This document shows, in pieces, positions 5,123-21,281 of a stretch of DNA of 64,000 bases. Below the pieces are notes generated by a model. It did not search any database. It was given only the letters and a program-made list of their open reading frames with translations, and was not told the DNA's origin. Each line of letters opens with the position of its first letter. Position 1 is the first letter of the stretch. The stretch covers positions 2,144,001 to 2,208,000 of the forward strand of contig CAXVYR010000004.1 in assembly GCA_963666975.2 (NCBI GenBank). Direction: 5' to 3'. The position numbers and the translations under genes were made by a program. This DNA is from Terriglobia bacterium (lineage in GTDB: Bacteria > Acidobacteriota > Terriglobia > 2-12-FULL-54-10).

Positions 5123-6040
5123 CTAAACCGCTTGCAGCACAATTCCCGCTTTTTCTATAGCGGCTTTCAGCGACTGGATCTGCTCCGTGCCAAGCTCCTC
5201 GGTCTTCCATCGCGGATATCGTTTCACGTCAAACCCCCGCAAGCGGGCTATGGCAGCCAGCACGGCTCTGCCGTTCGCCTTCGTCTTCGCCATGGCCGCA
5301 ACCAGCCCGTACAGCTTGCGCTGATGTTCAAAGGTCTCCTTCCAGCGCTCGTTCCGAATGGCGTCCCACAAGCCGACGCACAGCTCCGGGAATAAACTGG
5401 TCGGCGGGTGAATCGAGCCATTGAGTCCCACAGGAGCGGCGGCGGCCAAATTAAAAATCGACCCGGAAAAAACGCCGAACTCAGCCGGGAGCGTGTGGAT
5501 ATACTTTAACAGTTCATCCACAGCAACAAACGATACCTTGAGCCCGCAAATCGTGGGGATCGCATCGACGTATCGCCGCACCGTCTCCGCCGTCATGTGT
5601 ATGCCCGCATAGAGGGAATTATCGTAGAGAAACATAGGGTATTGCCCCAGCGCGGCCGCCACGGCCCGAAAGTGTTCCAAAATGTCGTAGTCGGTGTGGT
5701 CGCTGTAATAAAAAGGCGGCAGAACGGCGACGGCGGCCGAGCCAATGCTTTTGGCGTGAACAGCCAGCTCCACCGTGGTTTCGGTGTCGGCGCAGCCCAC
5801 GTGCGTTATGATCGGGATGCGGCTCTTTACTTGGTCCAACACCGTTTCGGCAGCCCACCGCCGCTGCGCCGGAGTCATCACAGGCCCCTGCCCGGCCGAG
5901 CCGAGAATAAACAGCCCATGAACGCCGCTTTTCACCATGAATTCCACCAGCTCGCGCAAAACCGGCTCGTCCAACTCGCCCTTGTGGTCGAAGGGCGTAA
6001 TCAGTGGAATTAAAATTCCTTCGCAGACCGTCCTAGCCAT
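5123..6040 (-). CDS. Dihydrodipicolinate synthase-family aldolase/lyase
   Basis: PLITPF, LGSAGQ (GxxGE variant), LPPFYY, LYDN, Schiff-base GLKVS; start taken at ATG 6040. Confidence 0.88.
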   Translation of the reverse strand: MARTVCEGILIPLITPFDHKGELDEPVLRELVEFMVKSGVHGLFILGSAGQGPVMTPAQRRWAAETVLDQVKSRIPIITHVGCADTETTVELAVHAKSIGSAAVAVLPPFYYSDHTDYDILEHFRAVAAALGQYPMFLYDNSLYAGIHMTAETVRRYVDAIPTICGLKVSFVAVDELLKYIHTLPAEFGVFSGSIFNLAAAAPVGLNGSIHPPTSLFPELCVGLWDAIRNERWKETFEHQRKLYGLVAAMAKTKANGRAVLAAIARLRGFDVKRYPRWKTEELGTEQIQSLKAAIEKAGIVLQAV

Positions 6041-6360
6041 AAAACAATGCTCCCTGATTGGATTTTTTCTCCGGCACAACTCCACCGCCCGGCCATCCCC
6101 GGAAAGCCCGGCCGCATCCTATGCGAGTAGTCTGGAGCTAATCGGGTGGGCAATTGTACCAAATCTTCTGCGGCCAGGGCCCAACCCTCCGGCGGTTTAG
6201 CTCAGGAGGGGCGGCAGCATCTGGCCCGAAAAAGGATTGAACACGGCAAGAGGCTGGGGTATATTCCACCCACAAATAAAGGCGCGATCTTGCGCCCCTT
6301 CCGGCTAGGGCGGGAAAACGGAGTTAGGGAATCAGCTCGATATATTAGGGGGAGGGAGAC

Positions 6361-8592
6361 ATGAGTGTTAGACCAAACCGAAGGTTCTTGCGCAGCAATT
6401 GGAACGTTATTGCCACGCTGACCGTTATTACTCTGATTGCCGTGTGGATCGTATTTCCGAATGGGGGGAACCTCTCGGGAGCATCTGCGAAGGGTCGTTC
6501 CTCTTGGTGGCCGCAGACGGGGGGGCCGCAGTTGATATCCGTGCAGCCATTCCCTGAAATGGAGGGAGCCATCTGCGAATGGGTGCCGGCCAGCGCTTCG
6601 GGAAACGACACCCTCGCCGCCTCTTTTCGTCCTGCAGCCTTGCTGAACCATGCGTTGCAAGGCGCGGCACAAAGCGCCCCGGATGGTGTAAGAACCGCCA
6701 CCGAGATTGAACGCGCGCCGCTGCGGGTCATCCGGGACACCTACCCGACATACAGCGCCATCGCCGTCGACACCACCTCTAATGAAGTGTACATGCAGGA
6801 TGAGAACCTGTTCGGCTTGAAGGTGTTCAACCGTCTGGACAACACTCCGCCGAACGCCGCATTTACCGAGCCGAAGCGAGTGATTTCCGGTCCAAACACG
6901 AAGCTCGAGTTTAATTGCGGCCTGTATATAGACCAGAAGACGGGCGACGTCTATTCAGTGAACAACGACACTATGGACACCTTGACGGTGTTCGCTCGCG
7001 GGGCCAGCGGAAATGCGACGCCCAAACGGGCGCTCCACACTCCGCACGGAACCTACGGAATCGCCGTAAACGAGGCCGTGCAGGAACTGTTCCTCACCAT
7101 CGAGCACATCAACGCCGTGGTGGTGTACCGGAAGCTGGCCGACGGGGAGGAAAAGCCGCTGCGGACGCTGCGCGGGCTTCAGACTCAACTGGAGGACCCG
7201 CACGGGATCGCCGTGGACGCGAAAAACAAGTGGCTGTTCGTCGGCAACCACGGCAACCATAAACTGAGCGAGGCTCCCTGGACGGGGCGGTTTGAGCCTC
7301 CCGCGATCACGGTTTATCCGCTGGAAGCCAGCGGCGACACCGCTCCGCTGCGGGTGATCGAAGGTCCCAAGACTCAATTGAACTGGCCGTCAGCGATGTT
7401 TATCGACGAGGAGCGCCAGGAGCTGTACGTAGCCAACGATGTGGGCGACTCCATCCTGGTTTTCCGCAGCACCGACAGCGGGAACGTGGCTCCCATCCGG
7501 ATCGTCAAAGGTCCGCAAACGCAGATCAAAAACCCCACCGGCGTGTTTGTAGATTTGAAAAACGACGAGCTCTGGGCCTCCAACATGGGAAACCACCGCG
7601 CGGTGGTATTCCCCCGCTCGGCGAACGGCAACGTCGCGCCGCTGCGCGTCATCCGGAGCGCCCCGGCGGAAAAGATGGCCCTGGCCATCGGCAATCCCGG
7701 CGCTGCCGCCTATGACAGCAAACGCGAAGAGATTCTGGTTCCCAACTGAGTGGCCCACCCGCAAATTGCGATCTTCGCCAGGCTGGCGAAAGAAAATTCC
7801 AAGCCCACCCGTTTGCTTTCCGGCCAGGCAACACGGCTGGCCCGCACCATGCACGACATCCGCTATGACGCGATCCACGATGAAATAATCGTGCCGAACC
7901 CTTTCGCACAAGCGATCCTGGTTTTCCGGGGAGGCGCCGACGGCGAAGAAGCGCCGATTCGCATCATTCAGGGGCCCCATACGCTGTTGCAGGGAACGGG
8001 CGCGGCGGCGGGCGGAGTGGACCGCCTGGACGTCGATCCGGTCCACGATGAAATCTTCGTCCCCGCCGGGGAAAAGATTTTGGTGTATCCGCGGACGGGC
8101 AACGGCGACGTGCCACCGTTGCGGGTCATCGAAGGCCCCGACACCACGCTCTACAGAGCGCAAGCGATTGCCGTGGACCCGGTTCATAACGTCATCGTGG
8201 CCGGCACGCACAGGAGTTACAACAACGGTCAGGGGGCCCTGCTGATCTTCAACCGCACCGACAACGGAAACGTCAGGCCCTCCAGAATCATCATGGGACC
8301 GAAGGCGGAGATCGGCAATATGAACCAGATTTTGATCCATCCGCCCAAGGGCTGGATCGTGGCGGCACAGACGGGAAACTCCTACGGGGTGCTGGAGCCG
8401 GAAGGCGTCTATGTCGGCGTCTGGAGCATCTACGACGACGGCGACGTTCCCGCGCGCTGGAAGCTCGCCGGAGATAAGAGCCTCATTAAGAAGCCGCGCG
8501 GGATCGCGCTGAACCCCAAGAACAAAGAGCTGATCGTCGCCGACATGCGGCTCAATGCGATGTTGACGTTTTACTTCCCGGAGATTTTTTAG
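6361..8592 (+). CDS. Exported NHL/YVTN-like beta-propeller repeat protein with in-frame UGA at codon 463 (candidate selenoprotein, 743 aa)
   Basis: ORFs 6361-7749 and 7750-8592 are in frame and separated only by TGA 7747-7749, which falls inside a repeat (EILVPN*VAHPQIAIF); ~50-55 aa repeats APLRVI.GP.T.L..P.GIAVD; hairpin at 7772-7793. Confidence 0.8.
7750..7793 (+). promoter_or_regulatory. Candidate bacterial SECIS element
   Basis: TC-TTCGCC-AGGCT-GGCGAA-A-GA hairpin; apical loop starts 31 nt after the UGA; core identical in the paralogue. Confidence 0.7.
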
Positions 8593-8823: not shown

Positions 8824-8979
8824 GGTTTTTTCGGATACGGTCTTAGAAGAACATATGTTTGGCGGAACTATGTTTGATGGGTGGGCGGCCTAAAAAATGC
8901 GGACAGTCCCGACATTTCATTTCCTTGACACGAATCGTCTCTTGTGTTCGAACCTAGCCACCCGATCATCGGAGGACGC

Positions 8980-10203
8980 GTGAACACCATGAAATCCAGC
9001 CGCCGGCGTTTCTTGAAGGATGGCGCCATACTGACCGGTTTGGTCGCCGGGACAGTGCAATCTGCAAGCGGACAAACGCCCGGCCCCGAGGAAGCCGCCC
9101 ATCGCTCGGCTGGCTTTGTGCGCGCGATTGGCGAGCGATCACGTCTTGAAACCTCGGCACGCGCGTGGTCTGATTCTTCCACGGGCCGCGTGACTTCGTC
9201 GCTGACTCCGCTGCAAAACTCCAAAGGAATGATCACGCCTTCGATGCTTCATTTTGAACGCCACCACGCGCGTGTCCCGGACATCGACCCCCGTCAGTAT
9301 CGTCTCCTGATCCACGGCCTGGTGGATCGCCCGCTGATTTTTACAGTGGCGGAGTTGGAGCGCCTGCCTTCCGTATCGCGGATCTATTTCCTCGAATGCT
9401 CGGGCAATAGCCGCAATCCGGGCCGGGGAAACGCGGAGACAGTCCAGGGAACCCACGGCATGACCAGTTGCAGCGAATGGACGGGGGTCCCGCTGTCCCT
9501 GTTGCTCCAAGAGGCGGGGGTGCAAAAGGGGGCAAGCTGGCTGGTGGCGGAGGGCGCAGACGCAGCCAAAATGACGCGGAGCATTCCGCTCACGAAGGCC
9601 ATGGACGACATTCTGGTGGCCTACGGGCAAAATGGCGGGGCGCTTCGTCCTGAGCAGGGCTACCCGTTGCGGCTGCTGATCCCCGGATGGGAAGGAAACA
9701 TCAGCATCAAGTGGCTGCGGCAAATCAAGGTGGTGGACCAGCCCTATATGACAAGAGAAGAAACCTCCCGCTACACCGACCTGATGCCGGATGGCCGCGC
9801 GCGCCAGTTCACTTTTGAGATGGACGCTAAATCAGTCATCACATTTCCTTCCGGCGGACAGAATCTGCCGGGCCCCGGATTCTACGAAATCACGGGCCTG
9901 GCTTGGTCCGGCAGAGGCGCAATCCGCAGGGTGGAAGTATCCACCGACGGCGGCGCGTCCTGGCAGGACGCCCAGCTTCAGGAGCCGGTACTGCGATTCG
10001 CGCATACCCGGTTTCGCTTCGCCTGGAAATGGGACGGCGGCGAGGCCGTGGTCCAGTCCCGCTGCATCGATGAGCAGGGTGGGGTTCAGCCGACCGTGGA
10101 CGATCTGATCCGGGTCCGGGGAAGGAGCTATAATTATCACTCCAACCACATTCAAGCCTGGAAGATCAACCGTAATGGAAGCGTGCAAAATGCGCTGGTC
10201 TGA
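8980..10203 (+). CDS. soxC: SoxC-like molybdopterin oxidoreductase (sulfite oxidase family), Tat-exported
   Basis: SRRRFLK Tat motif, LHFERHH, Mo-ligand FLECSGN, LRPEQGYPLRLLIPGWEG, ITGLAWSG; GTG 8980 behind GGAGG. Confidence 0.9.
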   Translation: MNTMKSSRRRFLKDGAILTGLVAGTVQSASGQTPGPEEAAHRSAGFVRAIGERSRLETSARAWSDSSTGRVTSSLTPLQNSKGMITPSMLHFERHHARVPDIDPRQYRLLIHGLVDRPLIFTVAELERLPSVSRIYFLECSGNSRNPGRGNAETVQGTHGMTSCSEWTGVPLSLLLQEAGVQKGASWLVAEGADAAKMTRSIPLTKAMDDILVAYGQNGGALRPEQGYPLRLLIPGWEGNISIKWLRQIKVVDQPYMTREETSRYTDLMPDGRARQFTFEMDAKSVITFPSGGQNLPGPGFYEITGLAWSGRGAIRRVEVSTDGGASWQDAQLQEPVLRFAHTRFRFAWKWDGGEAVVQSRCIDEQGGVQPTVDDLIRVRGRSYNYHSNHIQAWKINRNGSVQNALV

Positions 10204-10744
10204 TCTTTTGATCCCGGCAGTTTTCTTGGTTGTCTGCGCCGCGGCGCAGGCGCAGTCGCCCGCCTATGGCGTGGGCAGAACGCCGAGCGCCAAAGCAATT
10301 CGTGCGTGGGACATCGCCATTGGACCCGAGGGAAAGGAACTTCCGCCAGGAAAAGGAACCGCGAAAGAAGGCGCCACGATCTACGCACAGCGGTGTGCGG
10401 CGTGCCACGGGCAGACGGGAACGGAAGGACCGTTCAGCCGCTTAGTGGGCGGCCAAGGAACACTGAACACCAATCGCCCTGTAAAGACGGTTGGAAGCTA
10501 CTGGCCATTTGCCACGACGATATGGGATTACATCAACCGCGCCATGCCCGACGATAAACCGGGATCGCTGAGCGCAGACCAAGTTTACGCGGTGACGGCG
10601 TTTCTCCTCTACCGGAATGGCATCATCCAGGAAAGCGACGTAATCGACGCCAAAAGTTTGCCGAAAATCCAAATGCCGAATCGCAATGGATTTGTTTCCG
10701 ATCCACGGCCGGATTGGAAAACGCCGTCTGGCGGTCGTAACTGA
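10190..10744 (+). CDS. soxD: SoxD-like monoheme cytochrome c
   Basis: CAACH heme motif, KTVGSYWPFATTIWDYINRAMP, MPNRNGF; overlaps soxC stop. Confidence 0.88.
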   Translation: MRWSDLLIPAVFLVVCAAAQAQSPAYGVGRTPSAKAIRAWDIAIGPEGKELPPGKGTAKEGATIYAQRCAACHGQTGTEGPFSRLVGGQGTLNTNRPVKTVGSYWPFATTIWDYINRAMPDDKPGSLSADQVYAVTAFLLYRNGIIQESDVIDAKSLPKIQMPNRNGFVSDPRPDWKTPSGGRN

Positions 10745-10801: not shown

Positions 10802-11887
10802 TTGCTTATAAATCCATCCGAGCCGCGAGACGAAAAGAAAACCCTCGAGCAATTCGACGCGGAATTAGCAAAGCTCCATATGCGCGGCCAGTGGAAGGCC
10901 GATGAACTGCTGGTCCAAACGATAGGCGGGCCGAAACCGGGAGGGAGCCCTTGCGTCTGGAAATGGTCCGCAGTCCATCCGCTGCTGCTGGAAGCGTGCG
11001 ATGTGCTGCCGGAAAGTTTCACGGCCCGACGTCACCTAGGCTTTATAAATCCCGGGCTGGAGCGGGGAGGAGCCACCCACACCATCCGCATGGGGCTGCA
11101 AATGGTGAGGCCGGGGGAGATCGCATGGGCTCACCGGCACACCATCGCAGCGCTTCGCTTTGTGGTCGCAGGGAGCAATCAGGCATACACCGTCGTCGAT
11201 GGCGAGGTCTGCCCCATGGAAAACTACGATTTGATTCTGACCCCGCAGTGGAGCTGGCACGATCATCACAACGAAAGCGGCGAAAACATCATCTGGCTGG
11301 ACGTTCTCGACGCCTCGTTGATTGCCTCGCTGAACGCAACGTTCTACGAGCCGTACGGGGAAAAACGCCAGCAAGTGAGGCGGTCCGGTGAGGAAGGCTT
11401 CCTTCCGGAGCGGGCAGGAGCCCAGCAACTGCCGCTGCGATACCCGTGGAGCGAAGCGGAGAAGCTGCTTGAAAAAATGGCGCACCTGGAAGGAAGCTCT
11501 TACGACGGTCTCTCCCTGGAGTATGTGAACCCCATGACGGGCGGCCCTGCGCTGCCGACACTGGGGTGCCGGGTGCAGATGTTGCGGCCGGGGGAGAGCA
11601 CGCAGGCTCACCGGCACATCTCGAGCGCCGTTTATTTTGTGGTGCGAGGAGAAGGCGAAACCGTTGTGGGAGACGAGCGGCTGGAATGGAACCGGCACGA
11701 TTCCTTTGCCGTCCCCAATTGGAGCTGGCACCGGCACATCAACCGCTCGAAGACGGACGCAGCCATTCTGTTCTCCGTAAACGATACTCCCGTATTTCAG
11801 GCGCTCGGTTTATACCGGGAAGAGCCGGAGAATTCCTTGCAACAGGCGGCGGCTCCCTTAGCGCCCGCTCCATTAGCAGGTTGTTGA
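10802..11887 (+). CDS. Gentisate 1,2-dioxygenase-like bicupin
   Basis: AWAHRHT..ALRFV, TPQWSWHDHHN, YVNPMTGGP..PT, HRH, PNWSWHRH. Confidence 0.88.
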   Translation: MLINPSEPRDEKKTLEQFDAELAKLHMRGQWKADELLVQTIGGPKPGGSPCVWKWSAVHPLLLEACDVLPESFTARRHLGFINPGLERGGATHTIRMGLQMVRPGEIAWAHRHTIAALRFVVAGSNQAYTVVDGEVCPMENYDLILTPQWSWHDHHNESGENIIWLDVLDASLIASLNATFYEPYGEKRQQVRRSGEEGFLPERAGAQQLPLRYPWSEAEKLLEKMAHLEGSSYDGLSLEYVNPMTGGPALPTLGCRVQMLRPGESTQAHRHISSAVYFVVRGEGETVVGDERLEWNRHDSFAVPNWSWHRHINRSKTDAAILFSVNDTPVFQALGLYREEPENSLQQAAAPLAPAPLAGC

Positions 11888-12732: not shown

Positions 12733-15594
12733 ATGAAACGAAAAAGATATCTGCTTAGCCTTGCTCTTTTTGCCGCTGCTTTGTTGGTTCCGAACTTCCA
12801 CGTTGTTGCGGCCACCTTATCCGGCACAATTTCGGACACCGAAGGGGCCACCGTCGCCGGGGCTCAAATCATCGTCCGGCAGCCCGATACAGATTTCTCC
12901 GAGATGGTGCTGACGGAAGAAGACGGAAGCTATTTTCTGGAATCGCTTCCTCCGGGAGTTTATACCGTTACCGTTAGAAAATCGGGGTATGCCGACCTGA
13001 CTCAGGGACGAGTCACTGCCGGCGACCCGGCGGAACCCGTGCGGCTGAACCTGCGGCTACAGTCCAGCCAGGAACAAACTACGGTCCGGGCAACCGAGGA
13101 ACTGAATCCCAACATCTTTATCGTGAAGCTGGATACAAATGAAATAAACAGAAATTTGGACAAGCGGGGAGCCAACATTCAATTCCTCCGGGAGTTTCGG
13201 TCGCAGGAGAATAATTACGGAGCAATGTACGGCCACCCGCTGCGGAGGGCAGATTTGCTCCGGCCCAGATCGCCGCTGAGGAACTTCCACGGCTCCCTGT
13301 ACAATTCGCATCAGAACAGCGCCCTCAACGCCCGCTCTTTTTTCACCGTGGGCAGCCTCAGGCCGTCCCGGCGAAATCAGTACGGGGCTACGTTGGGTGG
13401 GCCCCTCTTCAGCGACAAGCTGTCTTTCGATTTCGCCTGGAGCCAGACCCGGGATTCCGGGTTTGTGAATGGAAACGTTCAGGTGCCCCTGGAGAGCGAA
13501 AGGACTCCTCGCTCTTCGGACCCGCAGGTGAACGCCGTCATCGCGAGACTGCTCGAAGGATTTCCCGGAGACCTTCCCAACCTTCCGGACGTCAGCCCGC
13601 GTCAACTGAATACGAATGCGCTTCGGGACATCCGCAGAACGGCCTTTTCCACCCGGCTGGATTACCGGCCCGGCGAGGCGGATCAAATCGCCTTTGAGCA
13701 AAGGTTTTTGGATGCGACCGAGGTGCCGTTTGAAATCGTAGCCGGGCAAAACCCGGATACTTTTCTCCGGCCGCAGAGCACCCATCTGACGCACACCCAC
13801 ACTTTCTCTCCCAATACTCTCTCCCGGCTCTCCGTTGATTTTGACCGCCTGGCGGTTGTGCTCAATATTACGGACCGGTATAGAAATCTGCTCGCCCCGT
13901 TGGGAATTGACGTGGTTCCGGAATATGCTTTCGGCCAAGAAATCTCGGCGCTGGGGAGCGGGGGCCGTGGGTCGAGCCTTCCCCGCAGGCGAGTGGAGAA
14001 TCGGTTTTCTTTTGCTCCGGAAGTAACCCGCGTCCTCGGAAAACACACTCTTTCAGCCGGATTCCGAATCACCCGGTTGCGAATTAATGATCTGCAAAGC
14101 GATAACTCCCGAGGCCAGTTTTCCTTCACCCGGGACTTCGGTCGCTCCGCCGTGGAGAATTTCCTGCACGGAACACCCACCTCGTTTACGATTGCCCTCG
14201 GAGATCTCTATCGCGGATTTCGCAACTGGGAAAACGCCTTCTATTTGCAGGACACCATCCGGGCCAGTTCCCGCTGGACGCTTTCGCTCGGACTGCGATA
14301 CGAAATGGTGACGGCGCCGAACGAGGTGAACGGCCTCACTTCGATTGCCTACTCGACCGACGCCAATAACTTCGCTCCGCAGTTCGGTTTCGCATGGAAT
14401 CCAGGCGGGGGGAAGACGGTCGTGCGCGGCGGCTATGGGATTGCCTTCGGGTCCGTCTTTCCGATCCTCTACCAGCGGGCGCGCTTTAACCCGCCCGAAG
14501 TGCAGGTGATCAAAATTGATAATCCTGACCTGCTTAATCCTTTGGGCGGCGCCGCCGAAGTGAAGAGATCAGAGTTGAATCTGCTGAGTCCGGACTTGGT
14601 GGCTCCCTACTCGCACATGTATAACTTCGGCATCGAGCGAGAACTGCCGGCGAATCTGTTTTTCCGGATCGGATATATCGGGAGCCGCACGTTCAAATTG
14701 CCAACCCGTGCCATCTCCAACCGGGCCCAGCCGGTTCCGGGACTCTGCGAGGAGCGGGAGGGTTTCCCTTTTCTTTGGTGCGGGACGAATACGACCAACC
14801 TCAGGCGGCCTGATCAGCGGTTCGCACAGATCTCAACCGTCACGAGCGGCGGCATTAGCTATTTTGACGGCCTGCAGGTTGCCGTGGACAAGCGCATGGG
14901 CCGGGGATTGACCTGGAATGCCCGCTACACATTCAGCAAGGCCATTACCACTTCAGATACGCATTTTGCACAGATCGGAACAGGCTTCCACAACAGCACC
15001 ATTGAGGACGTCTTCGGCGACCTGAGAGGGCTCGCGCGGTTTGACACTCCGCACGCGCTGACGCTCGGCTACCGGTTTGAGCTTCCCTGGGCGCGCAACC
15101 AGCGAGGAATCCGGTCCCTGCTGCTGGGTGGATGGAACATTTCCGGGACGACCACCTTCCGATCGGGCACTCCCACCCACGCGCATACCGGTTCGGATTC
15201 TCCCGGCTTTGGAAACGCGGACGGAGTGGGCGGGGACAGGCCAAACCTGCTGAACCCTGCGATTCTTTGGAAGAGCGTGGATCACCCGGATACCGCCCGC
15301 TTCATCTTGGCCAAGGAAAATTTCGATACGATCATCCCGCCGGGAGGGCGGGGGAATCTTGGCTATCAGACTTTCCGGAACGACGGCACGCATAATTGGA
15401 ATATCGCCGTCGCGAAGGATTTCCCTGCCGGGGAAACGGGCACTTTTCAACTTCGCACCGAGTTTCTCAACTCCTTCAACCAGCCGCAATTTGACGAAGC
15501 GAGGCACGTGATATCCGCAGACACCTTCGGAAGAATCCTGAATACGTCAAACAAGGGACGCGTCATCCAGATCATGCTGCAATTTCGCATGTAA
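12733..15594 (+). CDS. TonB-dependent receptor, acidobacterial Oar-like type with N-terminal carboxypeptidase-regulatory-like domain
   Basis: Signal peptide, LSGTISD..GA.V.GA, NSALNARSFF, RNQYGATLGGP, YLQDT...LSLGLRYE, NFAPQFGFAW, LRTEFLNSFNQPQF. Confidence 0.9.
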   Translation: MKRKRYLLSLALFAAALLVPNFHVVAATLSGTISDTEGATVAGAQIIVRQPDTDFSEMVLTEEDGSYFLESLPPGVYTVTVRKSGYADLTQGRVTAGDPAEPVRLNLRLQSSQEQTTVRATEELNPNIFIVKLDTNEINRNLDKRGANIQFLREFRSQENNYGAMYGHPLRRADLLRPRSPLRNFHGSLYNSHQNSALNARSFFTVGSLRPSRRNQYGATLGGPLFSDKLSFDFAWSQTRDSGFVNGNVQVPLESERTPRSSDPQVNAVIARLLEGFPGDLPNLPDVSPRQLNTNALRDIRRTAFSTRLDYRPGEADQIAFEQRFLDATEVPFEIVAGQNPDTFLRPQSTHLTHTHTFSPNTLSRLSVDFDRLAVVLNITDRYRNLLAPLGIDVVPEYAFGQEISALGSGGRGSSLPRRRVENRFSFAPEVTRVLGKHTLSAGFRITRLRINDLQSDNSRGQFSFTRDFGRSAVENFLHGTPTSFTIALGDLYRGFRNWENAFYLQDTIRASSRWTLSLGLRYEMVTAPNEVNGLTSIAYSTDANNFAPQFGFAWNPGGGKTVVRGGYGIAFGSVFPILYQRARFNPPEVQVIKIDNPDLLNPLGGAAEVKRSELNLLSPDLVAPYSHMYNFGIERELPANLFFRIGYIGSRTFKLPTRAISNRAQPVPGLCEEREGFPFLWCGTNTTNLRRPDQRFAQISTVTSGGISYFDGLQVAVDKRMGRGLTWNARYTFSKAITTSDTHFAQIGTGFHNSTIEDVFGDLRGLARFDTPHALTLGYRFELPWARNQRGIRSLLLGGWNISGTTTFRSGTPTHAHTGSDSPGFGNADGVGGDRPNLLNPAILWKSVDHPDTARFILAKENFDTIIPPGGRGNLGYQTFRNDGTHNWNIAVAKDFPAGETGTFQLRTEFLNSFNQPQFDEARHVISADTFGRILNTSNKGRVIQIMLQFRM

Positions 15595-19046: not shown

Positions 19047-21281
19047 TCAAAAAATCTCCGGGAAATAATACGTCAGCACGGAGTTGAGCCTCATGTCCGC
19101 CACGATGATCTCTTTGGTCCTCGGATTCAAGGCCACGCCGCGAGGTCTTTCAATCGTGCTTTGGGGTCCGCCGATCTTCCACCGTGCGGGAATATCGCCG
19201 TGATCGCGAATGCTCCAGACACCGATAAAAGCGCCCTCCGGCGTCGCCGCCGCCCAGTCGGTGGATTGAGGAATGATGATCCAGCCGCGGGGCGGATAGA
19301 CCTGGATCTGCTCCACGATGGAGATTTCTGTCGCAGGCCCGCGAATGATGCCTCGCGGCTGCACATTGCCATTGTCGGTGCGGTTGAAGATCAGCAGGGC
19401 CCCGCTTCCCCTGCCGCCTCCGTATTCGGTGAGCTTATTGAGCCCCACCACCACCACGTCGTTGACCGGATCAACCGCGACGCTGTTGGCGTTGCGCAAT
19501 TGGGTCGCGGGACCTCGGATCACCCGGATGGGGGCAACATTCCCATTCGCTTCCCTGGGGAAGACCAGTACTGAATCCCGGTTGGGGACGAATATTTCAT
19601 TGTTGATCGGGTCCACGTCCAGCCGGTCCGGCCTCTTCAACTGGGTGCGGGAACCCTGAATGATCCGGATCGGCGCCTCTTCCCCTGTAGCTCCGCCTCG
19701 GAATGTCAGAATCGTCTGGCCGAACTGATTCGGCACCAGGATTTCATCATGAACCGCATCATAGCGGATATCGTGCATGGTTCGTGCCAGCAGCGTCTTT
19801 TGTCCTGCCAGCAATCGATGGGCGGTTGCTGTCCCGTTCGCCAGCCTGGCGAAGGCCGCAATCTGCGGATGGGCCACTCAGTTGGGCACCAGAAGCTCAT
19901 CCCGCTTGGAGTCATAGGCCACACCCCCCGGATTGCCGATCGCCATCGCCACTTTTCCGAGCGGCGCACTGCGGATGGTGCGCAGCGGCGCGGCATTCCC
20001 GTTCGCCGTGCGCCGGTAAATGGTGGCCGAATGGTTGCCCATATTGGAGACCACCACCTCGTCGTTTTTGTTGTCCACATAAATGCCGGTGGGGTTTCGC
20101 AGGCCGGTTGCGGAACCTTCGAGGACCCGGAGAGGCGCTACGTTGCCGCTATCGGTCGCGCGGAAGACCAGGATCGAATCCGCTCCGTCATTGGCGACAA
20201 ACAGTTCCCCGTGCTCCCGGTCCAGATAGATTTGTCCCGGCCAGTTCAACTGCGTCCGGGAGCCTTGGATGACCCGCAACGGTGCGGCGTCTCCGCTGGC
20301 GGTCCGCTCGTGCACGGTGATCGAGGGAGGCAGTGTTTTTCCGCTGCCCGGCACCGCCCTGCTTCGAGTCAGCGGCCAGTTCTCCCGGCCGGGATTCCCG
20401 GCGTCCTCCCGCACTTGATGAACCGAGCCGTGATTGGCCACAAAGATCCAATCATTCTCCGGGTCCACGGCAATCCCATGAGGATCGGCGAGACCGGCAC
20501 GATCCCCCTGGATGAGGCGGATCGGGCCGTCTTCCCCTTGCGCCATCTTGGGATAAACCACCACGGCGCTGTCGTGCTCCACCGTCAGAAACATTTCCTG
20601 GTTTTCTTCGTCCACTGCGATGCCGTAGGTTCCGTGCGGAGTGTGAAGTTCGCGGTCGGGAGGAACGTCGCCCCGCGCCTGGCGGGAAAAGATGACCAAT
20701 GTATCCATGGTGTCGTTGTTGACCGAATAGATGTCCCCATTTGCCGGATCCACATAGAGCCCGCAGTTAAACTCCACCTTGGTCCTGTGCCCGCCGATTA
20801 CGCGCTTCGGCTCGGTCATAGTAGCTGTCGGCGGAGTATTGGCCTCTCGGTCATACACCATGATTTGGAAGAGGTTCTCGTCCTGCAGAATGATCTCATC
20901 CCTCACAGGATCAACGGCCACGGCGCTGAAGGTTGGATAAGTATCCTTGATCGCCCGCACGGGAGCGCGGTCGGCGTCGATGGAAGCTCCCCCGTCATTG
21001 GCGTTCTCTGCGAACACTCGCTCCTGCCGCAGAGCAGCCACCAGCCGGCTCTGCGAACTGGCCGGAACCCACTCGCACATGGCGCTGCCAGCGGCGGGCA
21101 TGGGCTCAACCGAGACCAGTTGAGCGAAGCCCGAGGGTCTCCGCAGAGCCGCCTGGGAGCTCGCCTGGAAAGCAGGCTGCTCCGTGTCCCCGGCTGAAAT
21201 GATCCATCCGGCGCTAACGGCCATTGCAGCGAGAATCGCAATGACACCCGGACGCCATCCAGATTGGTTGCTACGCGGCAT
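19047..21281 (-). CDS. Second exported beta-propeller repeat protein with in-frame UGA at codon 468 (candidate selenoprotein, 744 aa)
   Basis: ORFs 19878-21281 and 19047-19877 are in frame, joined by TGA 19880-19878 (ELLVPN*VAHPQIAAF); paralogue of 6361-8592; hairpin at 19855-19834. Confidence 0.8.
19834..19877 (-). promoter_or_regulatory. Candidate bacterial SECIS element
   Basis: CC-TTCGCC-AGGCT-GGCGAA-C-GG, same spacing from UGA as in the paralogue, compensatory T-A to C-G pair. Confidence 0.7.

Follow-up and report, generated by a model that had tools for sequence, protein, structure and literature searches.

Bacteria decode selenocysteine (Sec) at in-frame UGA codons by a well-described pathway. 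In genes such as fdhF of Escherichia coli, SelB carrying Sec-tRNA(Sec) binds a hairpin that lies inside the gene, downstream of the UGA, and has a G in its loop. This is the selenocysteine insertion sequence (SECIS), and in the bSECISearch criterion its loop lies 16-37 nucleotides (nt) from the UGA. In selenoprotein-rich Desulfobacterota the Sec genes are spread over many families. Published records stand at 63 selenoprotein genes for the Delta 1 symbiont of Olavius algarvensis (PMC13326102) and 46 for Desulfosediminicola flagellatus (PMC12013277). Acidobacteria are credited with four selenoproteins in three families in PMC1794560, and PMC12013277 counted three in the one Acidobacteriota genome that it tested. 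Here we describe a gene from a 64,000-nt stretch of Terriglobia DNA (the window, G000:C4:2144001-2208000, within a 4.23-Mb genome of four contigs). Positions 6361-8592 of the window very probably encode one selenoprotein of 743 residues, in which the TGA at 7747-7749 is read as Sec463. The family to which it belongs numbers about 6-27 members per genome in uncultured Acidobacteria from soil and groundwater, with eight intact copies in the source genome.

We favour the selenoprotein reading because the UGA is conserved, a covarying hairpin follows it at a fixed distance, homologues with cysteine (Cys) exist and the Sec genes are present. The starting observation came from a first-pass annotation of the sequence, which had pointed to two in-frame open reading frames (ORFs) split by a single TGA, to a downstream GTG with no clear Shine-Dalgarno sequence and to a propeller repeat whose register runs through the TGA. 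All of this stands. The ORFs, 6361-7749 (+; 462 amino acids (aa), ATG start) and 7750-8592 (+; 280 aa, GTG start), share one frame, and the TGA is the sole break between them. Read through, they give a 743-aa product that ends at its own stop, a TAG, with U463 inside EILVPN-U-VAHPQIAIF; an intact repeat, EIIVPNPFAQAILVF, is found at residues 508-522. No GGAGG-like motif can be read from the sequence ahead of the GTG at 7750; the ATG, by contrast, has GGAGG 5 nt upstream. Chance is a very poor explanation of the observation, since every Sec-type copy that was examined has this TGA and this hairpin. The features discussed below are as follows.

6351-6355, + strand: Shine-Dalgarno-like GGAGG, 5 nt upstream of the copy 1 ATG, read from the sequence.
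6361-8592, + strand: proposed coding sequence of selenoprotein copy 1, 743 aa and TAG; homologues match it on both sides of the TGA, from residue ~10 to residue 743.
6397-6453, + strand: codons of an N-terminal hydrophobic helix (residues 13-31), a predicted membrane anchor in the AlphaFold2 model.
7747-7749, + strand: UGA, the putative Sec codon for U463, from column conservation and Cys homologues.
7759-7771, + strand: proximal small hairpin of the CCGCA-NNN-TGCGG type, 4 bp in copy 1; 87.2% of alignment cells paired.
7772-7792, + strand: SECIS-like hairpin, core 7774-7780 with 7784-7790, loop GGC at 7781-7783, at most two extra basal pairs.
19047-21281, - strand: copy 2 of the same putative selenoprotein family, 744 aa and stop; TGA at 19878-19880, hairpin core at 19837-19853.

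Searches with tblastn found eight full-length paralogues in the source genome, 49-62% identical; copy 2 is one of them and shares 55-58% identity with copy 1. All eight carry the TGA within the motif (L)VPN-U-VAHPQIA, and all are open through it to a common C-terminal FPEIF. When the source genome is taken together with loci L015-L081, which partly overlap and supply 79 distinct downstream 63-nt segments, the codon is TGA in 92 of the 92 matches that cover the column. Five related genomes gave 96 matches to a 70-residue query around the site (G001 23, G003 27, G009 19, G012 21 and G005 6, the 27 of G003 lying on a single 3.8-Mb contig). A single TGA is present in 95 of these; the remaining match is the latter half of a copy broken by a frameshift. 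Further copies from metagenomes have the TGA in 17/17 cases, and similarity continues to the C-terminal FPEIF in all of these TGA-bearing copies. At the junction, intact copies showed neither TAA nor TAG, no frameshift and no variation in spacing. Tabulated by type, the codon is TGA in the Sec-type copies and TGC, or Cys at the protein level, in the others.

The source genome also holds remnants of the family. A degraded ninth copy (C4:2003473-2005033) has lost an internal segment and changes frame; it keeps the TGA, and its hairpin has the compensated form TTTGCC/GGCAAA. Short fragments lie at C4:2142931-2143059, C3:1088474-1088860, C3:482019-482192, C1:7731-8129 and C2:86234-86344. The copy at G000:C3:962094-964319 leaves the family consensus over its last ~30 residues and ends late, as might result from a sequencing error or from a frameshift close to the 3' end. 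Tandem or paired members are common, with up to three per 8-kb locus (L028, L043, L050, L057, L061, L063, L067, L069 and G000:C3:768183-772799), and this points to recent local duplication.

A second line of evidence comes from proteins with Cys at the Sec column. In a library of representative proteins, 6365 relatives were found at E <= 0.001 and 815 at E <= 1e-30, and the top 150 were compared with the 70-residue segment around the site. Cys occupies the column in 21 of these. Another 26 stop short of it (23 at residue 462 precisely) and 15 begin past it (10 at residues 464-466), while 30 align in another register, that of ordinary NHL blades, and 58 have no match to the segment. Fragments that end at 462 or start at 464-466 are of the kind expected from gene callers that halt at a Sec codon. 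A search with one Cys form, P0003, gave 827 proteins at E <= 1e-30, and Cys is found at the column in 119/119 of the further matches listed, which are full-length and mostly 730-770 aa long. Their motif is [NS]-C-V-x-x-P-[RQ]-I. In the databases the Cys forms are labelled 'DNA-binding beta-propeller fold protein YncE' (JGI), in one case 'hypothetical protein', or are unnamed; the label 'selenoprotein' is absent from the source names of the listed P0003 matches.

At the DNA level, the column is TGC in two copies (L082 and L083) from G011, a related genome of the same bacterial family. The DNA-level evidence for Cys rests on these two, because a metagenome scan with P0003 gave only Sec-type copies (17/17) and no new Cys-form DNA. 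Compared in this way, family members exchange Cys and the predicted Sec at this one column. We built a midpoint-rooted FastTree phylogeny of 139 sequences, namely 22 Sec forms (alignment A2), 115 Cys forms of 680-800 aa and the two TGC variants; shorter matches and most Sec copies are outside it, and its sampling is uneven. One large Sec clade (support 0.967) holds 17/22 Sec forms, four small Sec lineages fall among the Cys forms, and parsimony counts five changes between Sec and Cys. Support near the small Sec lineages is 0.4-0.6 and the rooting is arbitrary, so our claim is limited to an apparent interleaving of Sec and Cys forms on the tree.

The hairpin carries much of the argument. In copy 1 it consists of TTCGCCA (7774-7780), the loop GGC (7781-7783) and TGGCGAA (7784-7790); it starts 24-27 nt past the UGA and spans 24-44 nt downstream. 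The first-pass annotation had drawn it with a 6-bp stem and a 5-nt loop. The hairpin itself, its loop G and the distance of 31 nt from the UGA to the first loop G hold good, and a loop at this distance falls within the bSECISearch range. The geometry has been refined to a 7-bp core (up to 9 bp by RNAalifold) and a 3-nt apical loop, GGN, in which G35 is invariant. Covariance was analysed in alignment A1, which holds 72 of the 79 distinct 63-nt segments counted from the TGA, the seven left out being source-genome copies outside the window. Across these 72 distinct copies the core helix (columns 28-34 with 38-44) has 99.2% of its cells paired, and sliding the partner by 1-3 columns lowers the pairing to 33-50%. 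All seven pairs form in 68/72 Sec forms and six of seven in the other 4/72. Compensatory, double-sided changes occur at three of the seven core pairs (four cases of C-G becoming U-A, two of G-C becoming C-G and one of C-G becoming A-U). Two further pairs at the base come from RNAalifold; one of them (27-45) is CG in 30 sequences and GC in 15, with 22 double changes. None of 500 shuffles matched the observed pairing values on any measure, a count that is not to be read as a probability since the sequences are related.

Codon usage bears on the same structure. Some of the compensatory changes alter the peptide, from A-R-L-A to P-R-L-G or D-R-L-S, and third codon positions are frozen: GCC is used in 72/72 copies, and AGG for Arg in 70/72 (AGT and CGT once each). 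Phe is written TTT five times; four of these accompany GCA and the other a G-U pair. In the two TGC variants the peptides are F-P-R-L-A and F-E-R-T-A, so F-x-R is kept, and the hairpin is gone (4/7 pairs). A smaller, proximal hairpin (columns 13-17 with 21-25) precedes the SECIS-like one. It has double changes at three of its five pairs, and its pairing is preserved in variants such as CCGTC-AGT-GACGG and CCATC-TGT-GGTGG. Double changes here also alter the peptide, from PQIA to PSVT or PSVV. The proximal hairpin may be part of the Sec-insertion element.

The source genome is equipped for Sec decoding, with selA, selB, selC and selD all present. ARAGORN places a tRNA-Sec at C3:431675-431772, confirmed by Rfam (72.8 bits against a cut-off of 47), and the scores for selB, selA and selD are 371.8, 563.5 and 349.5 bits. 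The selD gene (G000:C4:1360322-1361257, locus L010) has one in-frame TGA of its own, and selenophosphate synthetase is probably itself a selenoprotein. In the bacterial family, selB was found in 11/14 genomes, including 6/6 with a completeness of 90% or more; the three in which it was not found have completeness values of 69%, 82% and 88%. As for the genetic code, no internal TGA was found in any of 47 outer-membrane barrel matches from the source genome, and so TGA has not been reassigned genome-wide. ARAGORN finds a single tRNA with a UCA anticodon, the tRNA-Sec, although unusual tRNAs could escape its detection.

The protein is predicted to be a large propeller. Copy 1 scores above the gathering cut-off of the Pfam NHL model (PF01436; 34.2 bits against 20) and that of Lactonase (PF10282; 26.6 bits against 21.7), the best stretch of the latter covering only profile positions 164-330 of 344. 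It is not a YncE member, because it scores 17.6 bits against the 400-bit cut-off of the NCBIfam equivalog NF052280, and no other NCBIfam model comes near its cut-off. An AlphaFold2 model built from 22 read-through paralogues (alignment A2) has a mean predicted local distance difference test (pLDDT) score of 85.1 and a predicted template modelling (pTM) score of 0.80. In the model, residues 13-31 form a helix, residues 32-109 are of low confidence and residues 114-738 form twelve four-stranded blades, which are most likely two six-bladed propellers of NHL type. U463 is predicted to lie inside blade 7, in the turn between its third and fourth strands (457-462 and 468-473). The hydrophobic leader seen in the first-pass annotation is borne out as the helix at residues 13-31, though not as a classic signal peptide: in the model it resembles an anchor that stays uncleaved in the membrane, with ~80 aa of disordered linker behind it, and we infer that the protein is membrane-tethered with its propellers outside the cytoplasm. 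Foldseek against the PDB returned only tandem WD/YWTD propellers (Utp21, Pwp2, LRP6 E1E2) at a template modelling (TM) score of ~0.3, and a profile search of PDB sequences only generic NHL blades, with the family profile matching blades of Pizza6, TRIM2, TRIM3, PknD and Brat; neither informs function.

Outside the repeated blade motif, R455, U/C463, R495 and H498 are invariant in 137/137 aligned Sec and Cys forms, and V464 and P467 are each invariant in 136/137. We propose, with low confidence and from conservation, that the protein might be an extracytoplasmic enzyme in which Sec463 serves as catalytic nucleophile or redox centre and works with Arg455, Arg495 and His498. The substrate is possibly anionic or sulfur-containing, and that the paralogues differ in substrate is speculation. 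Most long forms have a MxGxMCxW-PAS motif with Cys72 (residues 60-80, ~6538-6600) in the otherwise disordered linker; the motif is missing from a short subtype, e.g. L055 and L067. Cys72 might be a tethered partner cysteine for Sec463.

Put together, and by analogy with the standard bacterial pathway, SelB carrying Sec-tRNA(Sec) would bind the GGN-looped hairpin 24-44 nt past the UGA. Sec would then be delivered to the UGA at 7747-7749 and translation would run on for another 280 codons. The product would have an N-terminal membrane helix, a disordered linker of ~80 residues and twelve four-stranded NHL-type blades, with the propellers facing outwards from the cytoplasmic membrane. There Sec463, in its blade 7 turn, may act with Arg455, Arg495 and His498, possibly on a substrate of the kind named above.

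The family is found in more than one bacterial family. All contigs with names come from metagenome-assembled genomes labelled Acidobacteria, Terriglobia, Candidatus Sulfopaludibacter or Solibacteraceae. In a class sample, 31/401 genomes (the source genome included) have a match at E <= 1e-60, two candidates being scored per genome here and in the phylum sample. By bacterial family, and with the source genome excluded, these are 11/13 genomes in f1, 13/35 in f4, 1/72 in f5 (G750, unpublished), 3/70 in f6 and 2/74 in f7; the other nine families of the sample have no match at this threshold. Every listed match in the class sample has at least one TGA. In the phylum sample, searched with P0001, 2/401 genomes match. 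No Cys form was seen in either sample. A first sample of relatives had suggested restriction to one bacterial family, an idea that we rejected since the wider class sample shows five.

Around copy 1 there are a DHDPS-family gene (5123-6085, -) and a cupin gene (10802-11887). A sulfite-oxidase-type molybdopterin oxidoreductase (8944-10203, +; Oxidored_molyb and Mo-co dimerisation domain) starts 352 nt past copy 1 and overlaps a gene for a c-type cytochrome (10175-10744, +); the two look like a SorAB-type pair. Further along is a TonB-dependent-receptor-like outer-membrane barrel with a CarboxypepD_reg domain (12733-15594, +), one of ~40 such genes (47 matches) in the genome. When neighbour ORFs were clustered around 74 loci, the largest clusters were shadow ORFs opposite the family's own genes. 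The recurrent real neighbours were the TonB-dependent-receptor-like barrel (11 loci), an unnamed 345-aa protein (9), a DHDPS-family protein (6), the molybdopterin oxidoreductase (5) and, as judged from sequence, amidohydrolase-like proteins (5 each). In the source genome 3/8 selenoprotein copies lie within 5 kb of a barrel gene, two of them sharing one, and one of the five molybdopterin oxidoreductases adjoins a family copy. The links of barrel and molybdopterin oxidoreductase to the family are weak. DNA contigs of run X2, perhaps the source sample itself, span the TGA without differences, and contigs from RNA libraries match both halves of copy 1 exactly (X17 at 7129-7346 and 8331-8564; X18 at 6732-7123).

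Several points weigh against the selenoprotein reading or the function that we attach to it. Sec incorporation and a product of ~80 kDa are predictions from sequence. No Rfam family matched the hairpin, its 3-nt GGN loop without a bulged U is unlike the E. coli fdhF element, and it overlies a conserved peptide, F-A-R-L-A, so that its conservation is partly at the protein level. No RNA-library contig bridges the TGA, carry-over of DNA into these libraries is possible and the uncovered parts are uninformative. Fold and sequence searches gave only generic propellers, no conserved partner gene is shared across loci and no recurrent neighbour is general. The proposed function draws on conservation and the usual roles of Sec only, and the putative grouping of U463 with R455, R495 and H498 comes from conservation. 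If instead the TGA were a true stop, the locus would hold two adjacent genes or one decayed gene, giving separate propeller proteins that are perhaps coupled through the TGA-GTG overlap. Gene callers and databases do keep separate ORFs of ~440-480 aa and ~275-285 aa, and a GTG directly follows the TGA. However, that GTG has no Shine-Dalgarno motif ahead of it, and the stop would split one blade of the predicted structure. The junction is identical, with a constant spacer, in more than 100 diverged copies, and pseudogenes would not all retain one TGA in an otherwise open frame. Fused Cys forms are the norm elsewhere (119/119 listed), and the covarying hairpin at SECIS distance is lost in the TGC variants. 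We give a true stop almost no chance of being correct.

A suppressor tRNA, either an allo-tRNA or a tRNA(Cys) resembling tRNA-Sec, could also read the UGA and insert Cys or another residue instead of Sec. This has some precedent: Mukai et al. (PMC5389517) place allo-tRNAs in Acidobacteria as possible nonsense suppressors, and describe selC*-type tRNA(Cys) in other phyla as possible opal suppressors. We consider it very unlikely here, given that the sole UCA-anticodon tRNA found is the Rfam-confirmed tRNA-Sec (with the limit on detection noted above), that selA, selB and selD are present and that TGA still terminates ordinary genes. A position-specific hairpin, moreover, is needed by SelB-dependent decoding and not by general suppression. 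A further alternative concerns function alone. Instead of being a free redox nucleophile, Sec463 could coordinate a metal centre, as happens in formate dehydrogenase or [NiFeSe] hydrogenase. Propeller enzymes with metal centres exist, His498 is invariant, and in the Sec forms His466 stands three residues past Sec (U-V-A-H). In the Cys forms, however, that residue varies (D, Q, Y, N or R), no metal-binding family was matched and metal-insertion genes are absent among the recurrent neighbours. We regard a metal ligand as unlikely. Our preferred reading remains a selenoprotein decoded through SelB.

The family has apparently not been described so far. No Pfam or NCBIfam (June 2026) model describes it, and no description was found in the literature searched, which did not extend to supplementary lists including BSepDB, where a listing is possible. 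The terms NHL, propeller and lactonase are absent from the main text of PMC13188914, PMC13326102, PMC9312934, PMC2398784 and PMC12013277, and NHL and propeller from the available text of PMC1794560. A remark in the first-pass annotation, that NHL-repeat selenoproteins had been reported from metagenomes, found no confirmation in this literature. A bolder proposal has, in our judgement, an even chance of being right: that the family is undescribed, is the largest single-family expansion of Sec genes in any bacterium (up to 27 in a 3.8-Mb genome), makes these Terriglobia highly selenium-dependent and represents a new class of propeller enzyme, tethered to the membrane outside the cytoplasm, with a Sec-Arg-Arg-His centre. 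If so, certain uncultured Terriglobia of soil and groundwater would be among the most selenium-dependent bacteria known.

There are practical consequences too. In public annotation each Sec-type member appears as two entries, a 'lactonase/NHL repeat' protein and a 'hypothetical protein'. Hundreds of genes thus carry wrong annotations, and the selenoprotein count of these Acidobacteria is too low by about tenfold. So many Sec paralogues imply a strong requirement for selenium, which bears on selenium cycling and on the resistance of these bacteria to cultivation. Sec in an extracytoplasmic NHL propeller would be an unusual chemical setting and could yield a novel activity. Experimental controls already exist in the abundant Cys forms and the two TGC variants found in nature.

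Set beside the known systems, the family seems unusual in scale and fold, with decoding by a known mechanism. It shares with bacterial SelB/SECIS genes such as fdhF the in-frame UGA, the in-gene hairpin downstream with its loop G, the Cys homologues and a genome with selA, selB, selC and selD. It differs in that the copy 1 hairpin is short (7-9 bp with a GGN triloop) and has a second small hairpin ahead of it, and in a propeller fold, with no relation to that of the thioredoxin-like or molybdopterin selenoproteins usually seen. Six-bladed NHL propellers (the PknD sensor domain, the Pizza proteins designed from it, TRIM and Brat) are alike in their NHL match and four-stranded blades. Here, however, the model predicts twelve tandem blades and a membrane anchor; one blade is rebuilt around the Sec/Cys turn (PN-U-VAHPQ), the next has RTMH for the usual PxG, and our PDB searches found no solved structure with these two motifs. 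The likeness to YncE and the seven-bladed lactonases consists of weak profile matches and the database labels of fragments and Cys forms; the lactonase profile matches only in part, and twelve blades are predicted rather than seven. Finally, the selenoprotein-rich Desulfobacterota resemble these bacteria in having tens of Sec-encoding genes per genome, whereas here up to 27 genes of one family are found in a 3.8-Mb acidobacterial genome.

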